From assembly GCA_020696385.1 (NCBI GenBank), contig JAEHCQ010000006.1, positions 1 to 64,000 on the forward strand: 64,000 bases of DNA, given 5' to 3'. Source of the stretch: Methanobacteriota archaeon. GTDB lineage: Archaea > Thermoplasmatota > Thermoplasmata > SG8-5 > JAGLSY01. Within the stretch, counting starts at the first letter, position 1. The number at the start of each line of letters is the position of its first letter. The notes under the pieces were generated by a model. It had not been told where the DNA came from. It did no database searches and saw only the letters and a list, made by a program, of their open reading frames with translations. Shown piece by piece: positions 1,179 to 58,297 of the stretch. Made by a program: the position numbers and the translations under genes.

Positions 1179-2357
1179 ATGACAGATATTGTTATAGCCA
1201 GTGCGGTCAGGACCGCCATAGGCAAATTTGGAGGATCGTTGAAGAACATTAGAGCACCAGAGCTTGGCGGGATCTGCATCGCAGATGCCGTGAAACGCTC
1301 GGGGCTTGAGAAGACCGATATTGACGAAGTGATAATGGGCAATGTGGTCGGTGCAGGTCTTGGTCAAAATCCGGCTAGACAGGCCATGATAGCCGCAGAT
1401 ATGCCCGTCGAGATCGGTGCATTCACCGTCAATAAGGTATGTGGATCTGGAATGAAAGCCGTTGTTCTGGCTGCTCAGGCCATCAAGGCAGGGGATGCCA
1501 AGGCCATAGTTGCAGGTGGTATGGAGAACATGGACATGGCTCCTTATCTGCTGTACAAGGCAAGGAATGGATATCGCCTGGGTGATGATAAGATAGTGGA
1601 TTCCATGGTCAATGATGGTCTGTGGGATATCTACAATAACTATCACATGGGAAATACTGGCGAGATCGTTGCCGAAAAATTCAATGTCACCCGTGAGGAT
1701 GCGGACGTTATGGCGATGGCCAGCAATCAAAAAGCCGCCGCCGCAATAGCAGGTGGTAAGTTCAAAGAAGAGATCATACCTGTTGAGATCCCTCAGAGAA
1801 AGGGCGACCCCATCATCTTCGATACAGATGAAGGTGTGAGAGCCGAGACCACGATGGAATCTCTGGGACGGCTAAGGCCAGCTTTCAGAAAGGATGGACT
1901 CGTAACCGCTGGAAATGCATCACAGATAAGTGATGGCGGATCTGCCATGGTGATCATGAGCAAGGATTATGCTGATGAGAAGGGAATTAAGCCACTGGCA
2001 ACTATCAGGGACTATGGGACAAGGGGTCTCATACCCGAGCTTGTGATGGAAGCTCCAATACCAGCAACAAGATATGTTATGGAAAAGGCTGGCTTGGGAG
2101 TGAATGATATCGATATCTGGGAACATAATGAGGCCTTTGCATCCGCATCTTGCGCTGTTGTGAAGGAACTGGGCATACCTCTGGACAAGTTCAATGTTCA
2201 CGGAGGAGCGGTCGCACTGGGTCACCCGATCGGAGCCAGTGGTACACGTGTTCTGACGACCATGGTCTATGCCATGAAGGACAGGGGTGCTAAGCGTGGC
2301 TTAGCCACCATCTGTCTTGGCGGAGGAAATGCAGTCACTATGGTACTGGAGAGGTAA
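1179..2357 (+). CDS. atoB: Acetyl-CoA C-acetyltransferase (thiolase II)
   Basis: NKVCGSG catalytic Cys, [12 protein letters not shown] and CLGGG motifs; RBS GGAGGGAG. Confidence 0.97.
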
Positions 2358-24857: not shown

Positions 24858-27101
24858 TCATAATGAAGCTCCGACTATCGCGCACTGGCCAATGGATATC
24901 CCACCATCTCCATTGGGTACACGATGATGTCGCACAAGTTCATATCCTTGTGCGGCCAGTTCCTTCATGATCATATCGGTTATTGGAATATTGTAACTGA
25001 CACCTCCAGTCAGACCAATGCGCTTGATGCCTTTATCTTCGGCAGCCTGCACGGCCACATCACATAGAGCCTTCACAAGCTTGGAAACATAAGCACTGGC
25101 CAGCTTCTCACGCTTGCCACTATATGTGGGCTTGGATACTATGTCAAGTAGCTCTCCAAAGGGCGTGATATGATCTATTACGCCGTCTTTAATATTGAAT
25201 GAATTAAATAAATCTTTATTTATATTTGTATCGGAATTAATAAGTCTCTCTAATTTCATTGCTGGCTCGCCATCATATGTTCGGGAATCGCACACTCCAA
25301 GCGTGTGTGAAACCGCATCAAGAACACGACCCGCGCTTGTTGTTCTGGGCGCATTCTCTATCATCTTTACGAAGATATCATGTTCTTCCCGGGTGGCATT
25401 GTGGAATGGTCTATTTGTTAGACTGGCCATTGCAAAGGCCAGTCTCATTGGCTCCTTCACAGCGGCCTCTCCGCCAAGTAGCGGGAACTCGGCAAGATGG
25501 CCCACCCTCTCATAACTTGATAGAGTTGCAGCCAGTATTTCCCCACCCCAGGCATTTCCATCCGCACCATATCCTGTGCCATCCAGCGTCATGACGACAG
25601 CCTCATCAATGCCAGCATCCACAAGCAAGCTGGCAGCATGTGCCCAGTGATGCTGTATCTCCATTATTTCGCAATCGAACTCGCTGGCCATCCTCTTGGC
25701 AAGCTTTCGATTTCCATAACCTGGATGCATATCGATGCCGATGCCATTCACTTCCCATATCCCGCGAAGATGCATCATGTGCCTTGTCGCGCTCTCCAAG
25801 AAATCCAGCACACCGTATTTGCTGGATTTACCAATGTACTGGCTGGGATAGATGAAGCCCGCAGATCCAGTAGCTGAAGTGAGGTTCTCATGTGCTCCCA
25901 ACCCGATGAAATTACCTGTCTGGCTTATCTCAAGAGGAACAGGTACGAATCCTCTTGATCTCCTGATGAAATAATTATGGCCAGCATGTCGAATTATGAG
26001 GGAATCATCACATCGATTGGCTATCTTTCTGTTATGGAGGAGATAGCCCCCTATTCCGTGAATTCCAGAAATTCCGGGGCTGGAAGCACCGAGCCCGAGT
26101 ATATCTGGCTCGGTGATCGCCATTGGCTCCCCCTGTGGATTTGCGGATGTCATTATCACCGCGCCAATATTTTTATCAAGATATTTGAATAATAAATGAT
26201 GGACTGCTGAATAAGGAAGCATGATACCGATATTGTCCAGTCCAGGAGATATGATATCCAAATCCTGGCGGTCTCGCTTTTTGACCAATACAATGGGTCT
26301 TTCACGGGATGTCAACAAGGCCATTTCTTCCTCATTGGCCTTGGTATATCTGTACACGGCCTTCGCGTCCCTGATCATTATCGCAAAGGGTTTTTCTTCT
26401 CTGCCATACCATTTTCTAAGGGTGGTGCCAGCTTTCAACGTGCACACGATATGAGAGCCGCCCCAGCCCTTCATGATGCCTAATTGGCCAGATGAGATAA
26501 GGTCGGCAAATCCTTCTATTCCGCCCTCGACAGACTGGCCAGCAGCATCGTACAATGTAAAATCAGGCCCGCAATCCGGGCATGAAATTGTTTGCGCGTG
26601 AAACCTACGATCTCCCATCCTATTATACTCGCCTTGGCATGACTGGCAAAGTGGAAAATCACCCATCGTGGTAAGTGGGCGATCGTAAGGCAGGTCCTGG
26701 ATTATTGAAAAGCGAGCACCACAATTCGTGCAGTTGGTGAAGGGAAATCCATGCCTTCTATCTGCATCATCCAGCAATTCGGAAAGGCATGCGTCGCAGA
26801 TTGAAGTGTCCGGGGGTATGGGAGAGGAACGACTGCCCTTTTGACTGGGCAAGATAATAAAATCATCATTGTCTGGCTGCTCCTCGAACTTCTCCACAAG
26901 GTCGATCCTGGCCAGTGGGGGAAGTTCATCCTTTAATATCTGGATGAACTTATCTGTTTTTGATCTACTACCCGACAATAATACCTCCACGCTCGAGCCA
27001 TTATTGCGAACGTGGCCGCTGAGGTTCATGCTAACGGCCAGCTTTACTACTGCTGGCCGAAAACCTACGCCTTGAACAACACCGTGAATATGCAGTTTCA
27101 T
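24858..27101 (-). CDS. hypF: [NiFe]-hydrogenase maturation carbamoyltransferase
   Basis: GVVQGVGFRP acylphosphatase motif, two CxxC-x18-CxxC zinc fingers, QHHWAH, DGTGYG.DG..WGGE, DGGISIGQ. Confidence 0.97.
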   Translation of the reverse strand: MKLHIHGVVQGVGFRPAVVKLAVSMNLSGHVRNNGSSVEVLLSGSRSKTDKFIQILKDELPPLARIDLVEKFEEQPDNDDFIILPSQKGSRSSPIPPDTSICDACLSELLDDADRRHGFPFTNCTNCGARFSIIQDLPYDRPLTTMGDFPLCQSCQGEYNRMGDRRFHAQTISCPDCGPDFTLYDAAGQSVEGGIEGFADLISSGQLGIMKGWGGSHIVCTLKAGTTLRKWYGREEKPFAIMIRDAKAVYRYTKANEEEMALLTSRERPIVLVKKRDRQDLDIISPGLDNIGIMLPYSAVHHLLFKYLDKNIGAVIMTSANPQGEPMAITEPDILGLGASSPGISGIHGIGGYLLHNRKIANRCDDSLIIRHAGHNYFIRRSRGFVPVPLEISQTGNFIGLGAHENLTSATGSAGFIYPSQYIGKSSKYGVLDFLESATRHMMHLRGIWEVNGIGIDMHPGYGNRKLAKRMASEFDCEIMEIQHHWAHAASLLVDAGIDEAVVMTLDGTGYGADGNAWGGEILAATLSSYERVGHLAEFPLLGGEAAVKEPMRLAFAMASLTNRPFHNATREEHDIFVKMIENAPRTTSAGRVLDAVSHTLGVCDSRTYDGEPAMKLERLINSDTNINKDLFNSFNIKDGVIDHITPFGELLDIVSKPTYSGKREKLASAYVSKLVKALCDVAVQAAEDKGIKRIGLTGGVSYNIPITDMIMKELAAQGYELVRHHRVPNGDGGISIGQCAIVGASL

Positions 27102-27153
27102 TGATGTTCAGATATGTGATGGTGTATAGAATTGTTTTGGCAAATATCCGAGC

Positions 27154-27240
27154 GAGCAGGCTCAGGCGAATTTTTCTTGTTAGCCTTCTTCTTCTTTTTG
27201 AGAGCCTGAGCCAGCACAGTGAGGGTTACAAAAAGAAGAA
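27154..27240. repeat. Pseudoknot-forming repeat unit 1
   Basis: Arms in order A-B-A'-B': GAGCAGGCTCAGGC (27154-67), TTCTTCTTTTTG (27189-200), GCCTGAGCCAGCAC (27204-17), CAAAAAGAAGAA (27229-40). Confidence 0.8.
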
Positions 27241-27291
27241 ATTGGGGCGGAAACCTACGCCTTGAACTACGCCGTGTATGTGGAACTTCAT
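27226..27291 (-). pseudogene. Duplicated hypF 5' fragment, MKFHIHGVVQGVGFRP-NFFFL*
   Basis: First 16 codons match hypF with mostly third-position differences; preceded by the same AAAACAATTCTATA promoter-like motif. Confidence 0.9.
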
Positions 27292-27345
27292 TGATTCAGC
27301 AATCATAAGTTAGTATAGAATTGTTTTGTATGCATCTAAATTTTC

Positions 27346-27431
27346 GAGCAGGGTGGGGCGAGTTTCTTGTTTTGTCCGTCTTTTTTCTTTTGGAGCCCCA
27401 CCCAGCACAGGAAATTTTTAAAAGAAAAAAG
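27346..27431. repeat. Pseudoknot-forming repeat unit 2 (diverged, covarying)
   Basis: GAGCAGGGTGGGGC / GCCCCACCCAGCAC and CTTTTTTCTTTTG / TAAAAGAAAAAAG: stem sequence changed while pairing is kept. Confidence 0.8.
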
Positions 27432-27464
27432 TGGGTATGGAATTGTTTTGGCAAATAACCGAAC

Positions 27465-27597
27465 GAGCAGGCTGAATCTCAGTAAAACTGAGCTTTCAGA
27501 ATCTCGGCAAAGCCGAGCTCCGGCGAATTTATCTTGTTAGCCTTCTTCTTCTTTTTGAGAGCCTGAGCCAGCACAGTGAGGGTCACAAAAAGAAGAA
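27465..27597. repeat. Pseudoknot-forming repeat unit 3, with a 46-bp twin-hairpin insert
   Basis: Near-identical to unit 1 except for insert 27474-27519 (CTCAGT-AAA-ACTGAG and CTCGGC-AAA-GCCGAG). Confidence 0.8.
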
Positions 27598-27648
27598 ATT
27601 GGGGCGGAAACCTACGCCTTGGACTACGCCGTGGATCTGAAGTTTCAT
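27583..27648 (-). pseudogene. Second duplicated hypF 5' fragment, MKLQIHGVVQGVGFRP-NFFFL*
   Basis: Same breakpoint after GFRP as the 27226-27291 copy; has its own AACAATTCTATA motif upstream. Confidence 0.9.
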
Positions 27649-27713
27649 GCACTTATACAATTATCAGTTACTATAGAATTGTTACGGAGGATAAATTGGA
27701 TATTTGAGCAGCT

Positions 27714-28289
27714 TCACAGCTCATAAGCTTCAACAAACTTCTTGATCTTCTTCTTAAGTTCTGGATGCCTCTCCATTTCCAACATCATGATGGCTGTCTG
27801 GAGCTTCCAAATCGTATAAAAATTCAAATTGGAATCCGGCTTCAGGTCTTTCATCTTCTCCGAGACAACCTTCTCTATCTCCAGAAAAGCCTCCTTGGCC
27901 AGCTTGTCCTGCTCGCCTTTACCATCATATCCGATATCCTCAAGAAGGGTGGCAATGGTCCCGCTGGTATTCTCCCATATTTTGAGAAGTTCATCCTTTT
28001 CGGGAACCGCGTCGATACTGGGTGCCATGAAGAATATCTTGGCCGTTCGCCCATATATCTTCTTTGGGATATGGTGATCCTTCTTCTCGCCCGTCTGCTC
28101 GATGATGCCCGCATTCACCAGTTTCTCAACATGTCGGTATATGGTGGATTGGTCCTTCTCAAGTATGCTGGCCATCTGCTCTATTGTGAGATCATTGAGC
28201 CTCAGTGATTCCAAGATCGTTCTTCTGGTCTCGTCTATCATGAGCTTTATTGTAGCCGGATCGTCCACTATCCTTATCTCATCAACCAT
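27714..28289 (-). CDS. ArsR/wHTH transcriptional regulator (191 aa)
   Basis: DETRRTILESL...LTIEQMASIL.KDQSTIYRHVEKL..AGII...YGRTAK; true start MVDEI (the longer track ORF overlaps the MATE gene). Confidence 0.9.
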   Translation of the reverse strand: MVDEIRIVDDPATIKLMIDETRRTILESLRLNDLTIEQMASILEKDQSTIYRHVEKLVNAGIIEQTGEKKDHHIPKKIYGRTAKIFFMAPSIDAVPEKDELLKIWENTSGTIATLLEDIGYDGKGEQDKLAKEAFLEIEKVVSEKMKDLKPDSNLNFYTIWKLQTAIMMLEMERHPELKKKIKKFVEAYEL

Positions 28290-28331
28290 TGCCTTGAATA
28301 TATGACTTGGATTATTTATATCTTTGTACAC

Positions 28332-28388
28332 TTGCACAATCATGCAAATGTTTAAATAACTCATTTTCATATATGCATATGCATGCAA
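28332..28388. promoter_or_regulatory. Twin TGCA-N6-TGCA operator-like palindromes flanking a TATA box
   Basis: TTGCA-caatca-TGCAA (28332-47), TTTAAATA (28351-58), ATGCA-tatgca-TGCAA (28373-88) in the divergent ArsR/MATE promoter. Confidence 0.6.
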
Positions 28389-29726
28389 GTGTCTCGTATG
28401 GACAAGAGATTGAGAAAGAAGATATTCAGCTTCGCCTGGCCGATAATATTGACCAATCTCTTCGCGACCATCATGATGACCGTGAACATGATAATGGTGG
28501 GCAGACTGGGGCCTGCGGCTGTTGCGGGTGTCGGCCTGGGGGGCCAGGTGGTTCAGATATCCTTCATGGTCATGATGGCAGTAAGTACCGGAACCATAGC
28601 CCTCGTTGCCAGGTACACGGGAGCCAAAAAGCCCAAAATGGCAAACCGCGCCCTCAAACAATCGCTCCTTCTGGGTCTGGTCCTTTCCATTCCAATAACC
28701 ATTCTGGGTTGGTTCTTCGGGACAGAGTTCCTTGCCATGTTCGGCTCTGAGCCAGATGTTCTTGAGTTCGGCTCCATCTATGTTAAATTCATCTTCCTGG
28801 GAACTACTTTCCAATTCATTGAATTCCTCTCAGCTGCCGCACTCAGGGGCTCGGGAGATATGAAGACCCCACTGATCATTGGCATCCTGAACAATGTGGT
28901 GAACATATTCTTCGGCTATGTGCTGATATTCGGCGAGCTGGGATTTCCCGAAATGGGGGTCAAGGGCGCGGCAATCGGCAATGTCATAGCTTTCATAATC
29001 GGAGGTGTGGCCTATATCATCATGCTCTCGCGGGGCAAGCTTAGACTTAAGCTGGAACGCAATCACGTGATATTCGACAGATCCATCATGCGCCGAATAT
29101 TGAAGGTCGGCACTCCTGCCGCCGCTGAACAGATACTTATCCAGACTGGATTTCTGGTATATACTTTCATAATCGTGTATTTCGGAACAGAGGCCCTCGC
29201 CGCCCACCAGATCGGTATGAGAATTCAAGGATTGGCTTTCATGCCTGGCATAGGGTTCTCCATGGCAGCAACTGCTCTCGTTGGCCAATACCTGGGAGCC
29301 AAAAAACCAAAGACCTCCGAAAGGTCAGCAGTGGAATCCGCCAAGCTTTCCGCATTGTCCATGACAGCCATAGGTGTGGTGTTATTCTTCCTCGCAGACC
29401 CAATGGCCAGACTTTTCATCAGTGATCTGGACACTTTGAAATACACGGCTCTGTGGATCCGACTTCTGGCCTTCAGCATGCCTGCCATCGGCCTTTTCTT
29501 CACTCTGTCCGGAGGATTGAGGGGGGCGGGAGACACTCGTTGGCCTCTCTATGCGTCCACCTTTGGCATCTATGCAATTCGATTACCCTTCGCGGCATTC
29601 CTGGGATTTTACATGGGCCTGGGAATAATGGGGGCCTGGATAGCCTTCATCATAGAATATTATGTGAGGTCTGTTATAATATTATGGCGGTTCAGGTCTG
29701 GCAAGTGGAAAGAAGTCAAGGTTTGA
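28383..29726 (+). CDS. MATE family efflux transporter
   Basis: 12-TM pattern; LRGSGDMKTPL, MGVKGAA, LRGAGDTRWP; GKWK terminus. Confidence 0.95.
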   Translation: MQVSRMDKRLRKKIFSFAWPIILTNLFATIMMTVNMIMVGRLGPAAVAGVGLGGQVVQISFMVMMAVSTGTIALVARYTGAKKPKMANRALKQSLLLGLVLSIPITILGWFFGTEFLAMFGSEPDVLEFGSIYVKFIFLGTTFQFIEFLSAAALRGSGDMKTPLIIGILNNVVNIFFGYVLIFGELGFPEMGVKGAAIGNVIAFIIGGVAYIIMLSRGKLRLKLERNHVIFDRSIMRRILKVGTPAAAEQILIQTGFLVYTFIIVYFGTEALAAHQIGMRIQGLAFMPGIGFSMAATALVGQYLGAKKPKTSERSAVESAKLSALSMTAIGVVLFFLADPMARLFISDLDTLKYTALWIRLLAFSMPAIGLFFTLSGGLRGAGDTRWPLYASTFGIYAIRLPFAAFLGFYMGLGIMGAWIAFIIEYYVRSVIILWRFRSGKWKEVKV

Positions 29727-57724: not shown

Positions 57725-58297
57725 TTATGCCGGTAATGGATGATCAAAGTAATCTTGTTTGATGTCATCTCCTGTAATGTCAAGATATATCTGCGTGGTC
57801 GTCAGGGATGAATGACCTAACATCTTCTGTACAGTCCTTAGATTCATACCCGCCTTGAGGCAATGCACGGCGAAGGAGTGCCTCAGCATGTGTGGGTGGA
57901 CATGCTGGGTGATGCCCGCTCTTTTCCCGTATTCTGCTACTAATCGCTCTATCTGGCGAGTGGATATCCTCTCGCTGACAGCGGATTGGAATAAGAATCC
58001 CGTTTCAGATATGTGGTCGCCAGTTCTCTCATTACTTATGAAATGCTCCACCATGTCCAGTGTATAGTGGTCGACAGGCACTATGCGGTCCTTGCCGCCC
58101 TTTCCCTGTCTAACAATAAGATCATTATCATTGAACATGATATTCTCTATTTTGAGATCGGCCAACTCTGAAACTCGTAATCCACACCTGTAAAGGATCC
58201 TGAGGATCAATCGATCCCGGATATTATTCCTATCCGGTGCATTAAGTAATTTCTGGATCTCGCGCTCTTTTAGATATTTTGGCAGTGTCTTCGCCAT
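57725..58297 (-). CDS. XerC/D-like tyrosine recombinase, catalytic domain only (~190 aa)
   Basis: LPKYL start, GLRVSE, GKGGK.R, HPHMLRHSFA, LGHSSL.TTQIY; no N-terminal core-binding domain. Confidence 0.92.
   Translation of the reverse strand: MAKTLPKYLKEREIQKLLNAPDRNNIRDRLILRILYRCGLRVSELADLKIENIMFNDNDLIVRQGKGGKDRIVPVDHYTLDMVEHFISNERTGDHISETGFLFQSAVSERISTRQIERLVAEYGKRAGITQHVHPHMLRHSFAVHCLKAGMNLRTVQKMLGHSSLTTTQIYLDITGDDIKQDYFDHPLPA

Follow-up and report, generated by a model that had tools for sequence, protein, structure and literature searches.

A dispersed, covarying three-helix repeat family of uncultured Thermoplasmata and its association with spare gene ends

The first 64,000 nucleotides (nt) of contig JAEHCQ010000006.1 from a Methanobacteriota archaeon (assembly GCA_020696385.1), hereafter the window, contain a 612-nt spacer between two minus-strand genes, hypF and a gene coding for an ArsR-type protein of 366 amino acid residues. 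This spacer is filled by an array of repeats, which raises the question of what these repeats are and of what lies between them. A first-pass annotation of positions 27154–27597, made from the sequence alone, described three copies of a covarying pseudoknot and proposed a novel structured RNA or single-stranded DNA element, acting as a mobile unit, a ribozyme or a switch between two exclusive hairpins. We observed that the three copies belong to a new, abundant and old family (at the level of the order and beyond) of structured repeats of about 105 nt, here named E, with a strand-specific three-helix fold, and that E is associated with duplicated, coding-like gene ends. The wider family, its third helix, the duplications of gene ends and the identity of the spacers as copies of the hypF 5' end had been missed in the annotation.

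The arms of the two stems first described are, in fact, interleaved (A-B-A'-B') in every copy of the window, with only 2–3 nt between B and A'. In copy 1, stem A is formed by GGCTCAGGC (27159–27167) and GCCTGAGCC (27204–27212) and stem B by TTCTTCTTTTTG (27189–27200) and CAAAAAGAAGAA (27229–27240); in copy 2 the stems, both seen as inverted repeats, are GGGTGGGGC/GCCCCACCC and CTTTTTTCTTTT/AAAAGAAAAAAG. The description of copy 3 has to be amended: its arms lie where they were placed, but a 46-nt insert (27474–27519) interrupts stem A in its 5' arm, which also contains one mismatch. We also identified a third covarying helix outside stem A (CCGAGC/GTGAGG with tandem G-A pairs, and ATTTTC/GGAAAT in copy 2). 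Hereafter, P1 is this outer helix, P2 is stem A and P3 is stem B, the latter being interleaved with both P1 and P2. In its 5' half, a member of the family is composed of a weakly conserved leader (GCAAAT), the 6-nt P1a arm, an invariant GAGCAGG, P2a and GAnTTT followed by a T-rich loop that ends in P3a; the 3' half comprises GGA or AGA, P2b, CAGCRCAG, P1b, a linker of 2–4 nt and an A-rich P3b, with which the element ends.

Conservation of pairing was quantified in two sets of copies. In a MAFFT alignment of 25 copies from the window's own genome, 79.9% of the cells pair, against 67.3% in shuffled alignments (0 of 500 reaching the observed value) and 42–53% with slid partners, and both sides have changed at 20 of the 29 pairs. 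For P1 and P2 of 53 copies from other genomes, aligned to a covariance model, which leans toward its own structure, 87.4% of the cells pair, against 66.2% when shuffled and 20–39% when slid, and 201 cells are changed on both sides. The register of P3 shifts between subfamilies and, therefore, the loop of each copy was paired with the tail of every copy: the copy's own 3' arm gives -17.4 kcal/mol and the arms of other copies -12.7 kcal/mol (52 of the 53 copies), a value as low being reached in 0 of 2000 permutations. The compensatory change, from which selection on structure had been proposed on the basis of three copies, is thus maintained when many more are considered. Folding of single sequences, which alone says little, gave z-scores of -0.2 to -2.6, and the minimum-energy folds contain P3 in copies 1 and 3, and P1 with P2 in copy 2.

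The pairing also distinguishes the strands. G-U outnumber A-C combinations (16:6 in the alignment from the window's genome and 19:6 among the external copies), and tandem G-A/A-G pairs, which would be C-T mismatches on the opposite strand, occur in 51 and 99 cells, respectively, at positions occupied by U-A or C-G in other copies. Given this pattern of G-U and G-A/A-G mismatches, the fold is maintained on one strand, the sense strand, as RNA or as single-stranded DNA, and it is this single-stranded fold that selection keeps. The topology is that of an H-type pseudoknot, since P2 and P3 both covary and are interleaved, with P3a in the loop of P2, and P3b located 3' of P2b and P1b. A simple H-type knot with all three helices stacked does not seem feasible, because the linker between P1b and P3b has only 2–4 nt; P1 with P2, on one side, and P3, on the other, may either coexist through a sharp kink of the conserved internal loop or alternate. 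When Rfam was searched on both strands with permissive thresholds, ten matches were obtained, all with E values of at least 1.2 and with 12–19 bits against thresholds of 48–107; these are models of eukaryotic microRNAs, small nucleolar RNAs or long non-coding RNAs, the best hits being to microRNAs. No Rfam family, hammerhead, hepatitis delta virus (HDV), twister, pistol and riboswitches included, reached its gathering threshold, in agreement with the novelty that had been proposed.

A search with BLAST and iterated nhmmer, run to convergence, yielded 45 matches in the window's own genome (2.28 Mb in 50 contigs, 94% complete; hereafter the home genome). The covariance model detected E in 30 of 61 related genomes, among them 20 of the 21 other genomes of the same order and members of four further families of the class; one of the positive genomes is a single contig of 3.2 Mb. 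A pattern scan across prokaryotes (one genome per species) found 85 stretches, 80 of which were fetched and 53 confirmed by nhmmer. All 53 confirmed public loci belong to records of metagenome-assembled genomes (MAGs) titled Thermoplasmata, Methanomassiliicoccales, Thermoplasmatota, Methanobacteriota or archaeon, and the other 27 are bacterial chance matches. The scan also found five stretches in viral contigs, none of which passes the covariance model. A limited full-text search of the literature retrieved no description of an intergenic repeat element of Thermoplasmata and nothing relevant on miniature inverted-repeat transposable elements (MITEs) of Methanomassiliicoccales. One copy of the home genome, C33 220223–220312, has orthologous counterparts in three external genomes (L066, L088 and L090); it may be among the oldest fixed copies and useful for dating.

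The sequences on the two sides of E are frequently alike. A significant direct repeat between the flanks was identified at 31 of the 45 copies of the home genome, and in at least 22 of these 31 the repeated sequence is not part of the element, has 17–105 nt and is 75–100% identical; one further flank repeat, next to a Y1 transposase gene, has about 330 nt and includes a tRNA gene. In other genomes, flank repeats were flagged at 23 of 47 loci. The layout is polar: the copy joined to the gene (X) lies 5' of E, at 0–35 nt, and the orphan copy (X') begins 0–13 nt after the last base of P3b, so that the junction is precise on the 3' side of E and loose on the 5' side; in the cases in which reading frames were tallied, the gene is on the 5' side. 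The 18 pairs of X and X' that were compared differ 24, 9 and 78 times at codon positions 1, 2 and 3, respectively, with the frame taken automatically as the longest open one and with two probably non-coding pairs supplying much of the count at position 1. Perfect duplicates of 51–60 nt are present among the pairs. The units between repeats have 100–350 nt and no long open reading frames (ORFs), and more than 20 different genes are targets, with no common junction sequence.

Several explanations of these repeats were considered and set aside. A simple target-site duplication followed by decay is ruled out by the third-position differences (78 of 111) and by the different closest relatives of the two copies. 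A diversity-generating retroelement does not fit either, since by inspection the differences between X copies are not adenine-specific, and no RVT_1 match was found. Gene fragments transduced by E from other loci were not found, the matches of the flanks elsewhere in the genome being other repeat families, and a hypF fragment is absent behind C33 26018, a copy of the same subfamily as the first one of the window. The likeness between the 3' end of E and the sequence preceding X, seen at only two loci, is no general trait.

The window illustrates the arrangement in its stacked form, in the order hypF-X0-E1-X1-E2-x2-E3-X3. E1 (27140–27245, plus strand; nhmmer match 27148–27241, covariance-model match 27140–27247 with 91.2 bits) reads leader GCAAAT, P1a, GAGCAGG, P2a, T-rich loop with P3a, GA, P2b, CAGCACAG, P1b and P3b, and its likeness to C33 26018 opens at CAAAT and closes at AAATTGG. 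E2 (27332–27435, plus strand; found by nhmmer and by its inverted repeats, covariance-model match 27332–27438 with 95.4 bits) is of another subfamily and shows, relative to E1, compensatory changes in both stems. E3 (27451–27602, plus strand; recognised by direct repeats within the window, nhmmer match 27517–27598) is 93% identical to E1 across its 3' two thirds. The insert within its P2a (27474–27519, plus strand) is a double hairpin (CTCAG..CTGAG and CTCGG..CCGAG) and represents a second dispersed repeat family, with matches of 88–93% at C33 72904–72991, C33 25746–25811 and C11 480474–480523; the E copies C33 199748 and C48 100959 carry it in the identical position, so that the composite exists at three loci, including E3. 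At least one further repeat family (about 130 nt, more than 20 copies per genome) adjoins several E copies (for example at C11 636714–636863 and C48 76586–76735) and is also abundant in G002, a genome of the same genus.

All segments between the elements of the window are orphan hypF 5' ends, and the upstream word AACAATTCTATA is kept in each of them. X0 (27055–27139, minus strand), the working 5' end of hypF, comprises this promoter-like word, the 5' untranslated region (UTR), the ATG at 27101 and the first 16 codons. The spare ends X1 (27246–27331) and X3 (27603–27686), together with a short remnant of the same upstream segment, x2 (27436–27450; TATGGAATTGTTTTG), were identified on the same strand, as was X0, by direct repeats. 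While the start of hypF itself reads MKLHIHGVVQGVGFRP, X1 reads MKFHIHGVVQGVGFRP, continues into E1 and stops after 21 codons, and X3 reads MKLQIHGVVQGVGFRP and is continuous with the arsR-like side. The differences from X0 are at third codon positions in 8 of 9 cases for X1 and in 10 of 11 for X3. At both spare ends (27246–27295 and 27603–27652, minus strand), the promoter-like word, the ATG and 16 codons are followed by PNFFFL and a stop located inside the element, and these 21-codon ORFs could be reported by gene callers; TTTCTTCTTTTTG comes, on the minus strand, after codons 17–21 of these decoy starts. The real hydrogenase-maturation gene of the window is preceded by two decoys, each with a hypF promoter and a start codon, and decoy transcription is possible there. 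The gene itself (24858–27101, minus strand) codes for a [NiFe]-hydrogenase maturation carbamoyltransferase of 747 amino acid residues, with the Pfam domains Acylphosphatase, zf-HYPF, Sua5_yciO_yrdC, HypF_C and HypF_C_2, and its upstream neighbour (27714–28814, minus strand) codes for the 366-residue protein with an ArsR-type winged helix (HTH_5, E value 3.9e-10). The three E copies are antisense to both genes and face the 5' end of hypF, an arrangement that is in the minority within the family.

The mobility of E was addressed by comparing eleven loci of the home genome with genomes of the same genus. In G002, seven loci (hypF, C44 99270, C46 100232, C33 161087, C44 146222, C48 100959 and C33 252813) have adjacent flanks with a single X and no E, one (C33 175439) contains E, and three could not be resolved. 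At five loci, E is present in other genomes and has no nhmmer match in the home genome; in one of these cases the flanks are 99–100% identical and the home genome retains a remnant of E without its central 63 nt. E is, then, polymorphic for presence and absence. In the comparison of C11:77841–78376 with L098, short GAGC repeats bound the central 63 nt that were lost, and about 6 changes fall within 25 nt of the orphan end; short conversion tracts are visible at this locus, the orphan region being a local hot spot.

The copies at hypF have different affinities. X0 is 89% identical to G001, another genome of the comparison, and the next 150 nt of hypF are 69% identical to G001 and 84% to G002; X3 is 95% identical to the single copy of G002, with flanking genes at 78–82%, and X1 does not exceed 83% identity with any other copy. 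Affinity shifts at the X boundary (codon 16), with a foreign copy joined to the gene and a native-like one on the far side. That a donor allele replaced hypF in full is ruled out, because the change of affinity is limited to about the first 90 nt. A suggestive case was observed at the C3 locus, where the gene-joined copy is 97% identical to G002, the gene 90% and the orphan 86%. In G014, from a different family of the order, the arrangement is hypF-X-E-X-E-X; the E subfamily is the same, the 3' end of E again abuts codon 16, and the 5' junction is another one.

The clearest view of the fate of both copies was obtained at C33 175439. Here X-E-X' and the same filler are found in both the home genome and G002, hence the arrangement is older than their split. 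X and X' are identical over 40 nt within each genome, while the two genomes differ at 8 of these 40 sites, and all eight substitutions are common to both copies; therefore, orphans are refreshed from the working copies, and a pair may be identical without being young. The duplicates do undergo gene conversion. Three compensatory pairs in P1 and P2 and a single wobble substitution separate the orthologous E copies at this locus, whose loop and P3 (about 60 nt) are unchanged.

We give an even chance to the reading that E is a new, protein-free and non-autonomous family of mobile repeats of about 105 nt, in an order-level group of uncultured Thermoplasmata, that duplicates gene ends and acts as a two-way transcription stop. 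The mobile unit among the first suggestions fits the 45 dispersed copies, the presence or absence of E at orthologous sites and the composite with the insert at three loci. On one strand, E forms a bipartite hairpin (P1, the conserved internal loop GAGCAGG/CAGCACAG and P2), with the T-rich apical loop pairing with the A-rich 3' tail (P3). It resides in intergenic DNA with its 5' end toward a gene end, and its arrival, or later recombination, would duplicate the adjacent 17–330 nt, giving the observed layout of gene, X, E and a spare X' abutting the precise 3' end of E. Insertion may be assisted by homology: a piece with the folded 3' end of E as its terminus would pair through X and be joined at X' by microhomology, with the help of host recombination functions or of an enzyme acting in trans. 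X and X' would subsequently exchange by gene conversion, which is in part directly visible, and be overwritten by alleles of other lineages, leading to stacks of gene ends of different origin such as that upstream of hypF, and recombination between X and X' may remove E again. Judging from its T runs, which are present on both strands and would stop archaeal transcription, E is probably a two-way stop, and in the window it may cut off the transcripts of the two spare hypF promoters. E shares with MITEs, Correia, ERIC and BOX elements and archaeal MITEs a non-autonomous and dispersed nature, presence/absence polymorphism and nested insertions, but it differs from a MITE in that its ends are not inverted repeats and its flank repeats are variable (17–330 nt).

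A bolder form of this reading, possible but doubtful, is that E represents a new mobile class with neither an enzyme nor a target site of its own. The fold would travel with a copy of a gene end, insert by homology into the same gene of other cells or lineages, swap the ends and leave the old one as a spare; in this way, dozens of gene termini would be driven to exchange alleles and to evolve in concert. The piece transferred would always end, on its 3' side, at the fold, which might, for instance, block exonucleases or be cut at this point.

Several observations weigh against the reading of E as a mobile repeat that duplicates gene ends. Every genome considered here is a short-read MAG. By our reading of the alignment and of the junctions, E lacks terminal inverted repeats as well as a target duplication that is short and constant in length, and we know of no transposition chemistry that yields duplications of 17–330 nt. 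Among the enzymes examined (Y1 transposases and tyrosine recombinases) none could be tied to E, which is near a Y1 gene at only one of the 13 Y1 loci scanned, that of the home genome, and no match to RVT_1 (reverse transcriptase) or TnpB was found in this genome, which is 94% complete. The empty sites could be losses by recombination between X and X' instead of sites that were never occupied. A foreign copy, be it X or X', is clear only at hypF, with C3 suggestive and four other loci uninformative, and the in-place compensation and invariant loops at C33 175439 suit a host function equally well.

The last point leads to the alternative that survives best, although we consider it unlikely: that E is mainly an RNA that selection maintains in place and that serves the host at the 3' UTR by stopping transcription, by protecting the 3' end or by switching between conformations, the duplications being by-products of recombination at a sequence that is both folded and repeated. 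E is indeed polar toward gene ends. In the home genome, 20 of the 45 matches lie in sense orientation 1–66 nt past the stop of an ORF of at least 100 residues, the mirror arrangement being found for four, and in three cases a gene start lies no more than 66 nt from the 5' end of E; the 46 loci outside this genome comprise 20 in sense-downstream and 7 in convergent position, 3 that are both and 16 that are neither, which makes 23 sense-downstream loci when those classed as both are counted. The fold on the sense strand and the T runs on both strands agree with such a role, as does C33 175439, where the loop and P3 remained unchanged while the neighbouring codons came to differ at 8 of 40 sites. 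However, the three copies of the window are antisense to both flanking genes, the sister species G002 lacks E at 7 of 11 loci with no visible replacement, and, from what is generally known of archaeal termination, the internal T runs would be expected to terminate many transcripts too early for P2 and P1 to form.

Another alternative, distinctly unlikely in our view, is that E is the archaeal counterpart of the repetitive extragenic palindromic (REP) elements and REPINs, moved as single-stranded DNA by a single-copy Y1 transposase of the IS200/IS605 type, similar to the REP-associated tyrosine transposases (RAYTs). The REP, bacterial interspersed mosaic elements (BIMEs) and REPINs of bacteria, with their RAYTs, are, like E, short, protein-free, structured and extragenic, have tens of copies and are often located immediately behind genes, with suggested roles in stopping transcription or stabilising mRNA (PMC2817692, PMC3116915, PMC3733652). 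In a limited full-text search on RAYT and REP in archaea, the relevant titles concerned bacterial REP only. The strand-specific fold is what would be expected of a single-stranded DNA substrate, and the single Y1_Tnp gene of the home genome is followed, after about 270 nt, by an E copy. Y1 is present in one to three copies in most well-assembled genomes of the order, and 20 of the 61 genomes have both E and Y1, 10 only E, 9 only Y1 and 22 neither; these counts are weak evidence, because the genomes are related and the counts are not independent. On the other hand, no E lies within about 1.5 kb of Y1 at the 12 other Y1 loci scanned, including those of two genomes of the same genus, three of the genomes with E and without Y1 are at least 90% complete, no conserved tetranucleotide was identified at the junctions, and REP and IS200 elements insert without duplications. 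E also differs from REP in its three covarying helices over about 105 nt, instead of a palindrome of 20–40 nt, in having no terminal GTAG or CGTC tag (by inspection of the alignment), in not being arranged around the Y1 gene and in being accompanied by long duplications of neighbouring sequence. Downstream of the Y1 gene of the home genome (locus L139, C50:510–3857), one tRNA gene lies on each side of E (722–809 and 1201–1287, minus strand); these are diverged copies of 87–88 nt with a long variable arm, each preceded by a partial tRNA-like fragment, and ARAGORN assigns both to tRNA-Phe(GAA), an anticodon that looks unusual given the long arm, and these genes may contain an intron.

Very unlikely, to our judgement, is that E is a folded recombination site, of the attC or att type, for a tyrosine recombinase acting in trans, with the gene end and E forming miniature cassettes that integrate and excise as circles and carry a surrogate gene end. 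The prophage e14 and phage 21 at icd of E. coli, as well as elements in tRNA genes, integrate carrying a surrogate end of the target gene. They leave, similarly to what is seen with E, a foreign gene end, the element and the displaced native end, with mostly synonymous differences and with stacks formed by repeated events, and E has the corresponding direct repeats of the target gene end and a displaced native end at its far side; at hypF, in particular, the working copy is foreign and the displaced one native-like, and the junction between the 3' end of E and X is identical in two families. As in integron cassettes and their attC sites, a fold of one strand is conserved above the sequence, on the 3' side of ORFs, and arrays of E are formed with short units in between. 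Four Phage_integrase (tyrosine-recombinase) matches were identified in the home genome, one of them in the window. That match (57776–58279, minus strand) is strong (165 bits, in an open frame of 234 residues) and may correspond to a chromosome-resolution enzyme of the Xer type. Nevertheless, E has 105 nt, carries no integrase and is found at 20 or more target genes with no common junction sequence, against one att site, no recombinase is located beside any copy examined, and the identical or concerted pairs of X and X' require no circle. With respect to attC, no integron integrase or attI turned up in a search made with the general Phage_integrase profile only, no core such as GTTRRRY is shared across subfamilies (by inspection of the alignment, with no dedicated search for such boxes), and the putative cassettes are fragments of neighbouring genes.

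A self-cleaving ribozyme or other catalytic RNA, although suggested by the first-pass annotation and by the invariant unpaired nucleotides at the internal loop and loop edges and the pseudoknot-like topology, is scarcely credible, given that no Rfam ribozyme model matches and no cleavage-site signature was recognised. Assembly chimeras of coexisting strains joined at the repeat would agree with the facts that all genomes are metagenome bins and that X and X' differ as strain alleles would. Hardly any credence can be given to them, however, since the same arrangement, junction and filler occur at one locus in two independent genomes, flank repeats recur at 23 of 47 loci taken from many assemblies, made with different assemblers to judge by the contig names, perfect 51–60-nt duplicates exist, and the junction of E to X' requires real reads.

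Small structured repeats are, as far as we are aware, well studied in bacteria and hardly so in archaea. Being abundant, old and unusually clean in its covariation, E is well suited to structure probing and merits consideration as a new Rfam or Dfam entry. In practical terms, E and its gene ends lead to false short ORFs and to duplicated starts and stops in annotations, binning and assembly have to deal with the repeats and near-duplicates, and the inference of recombination is affected. The pairing of E with spare, coding-like gene ends is the more important part of the finding, as it offers a testable handle on the exchange of very short tracts of DNA in uncultured and possibly wall-less archaea.

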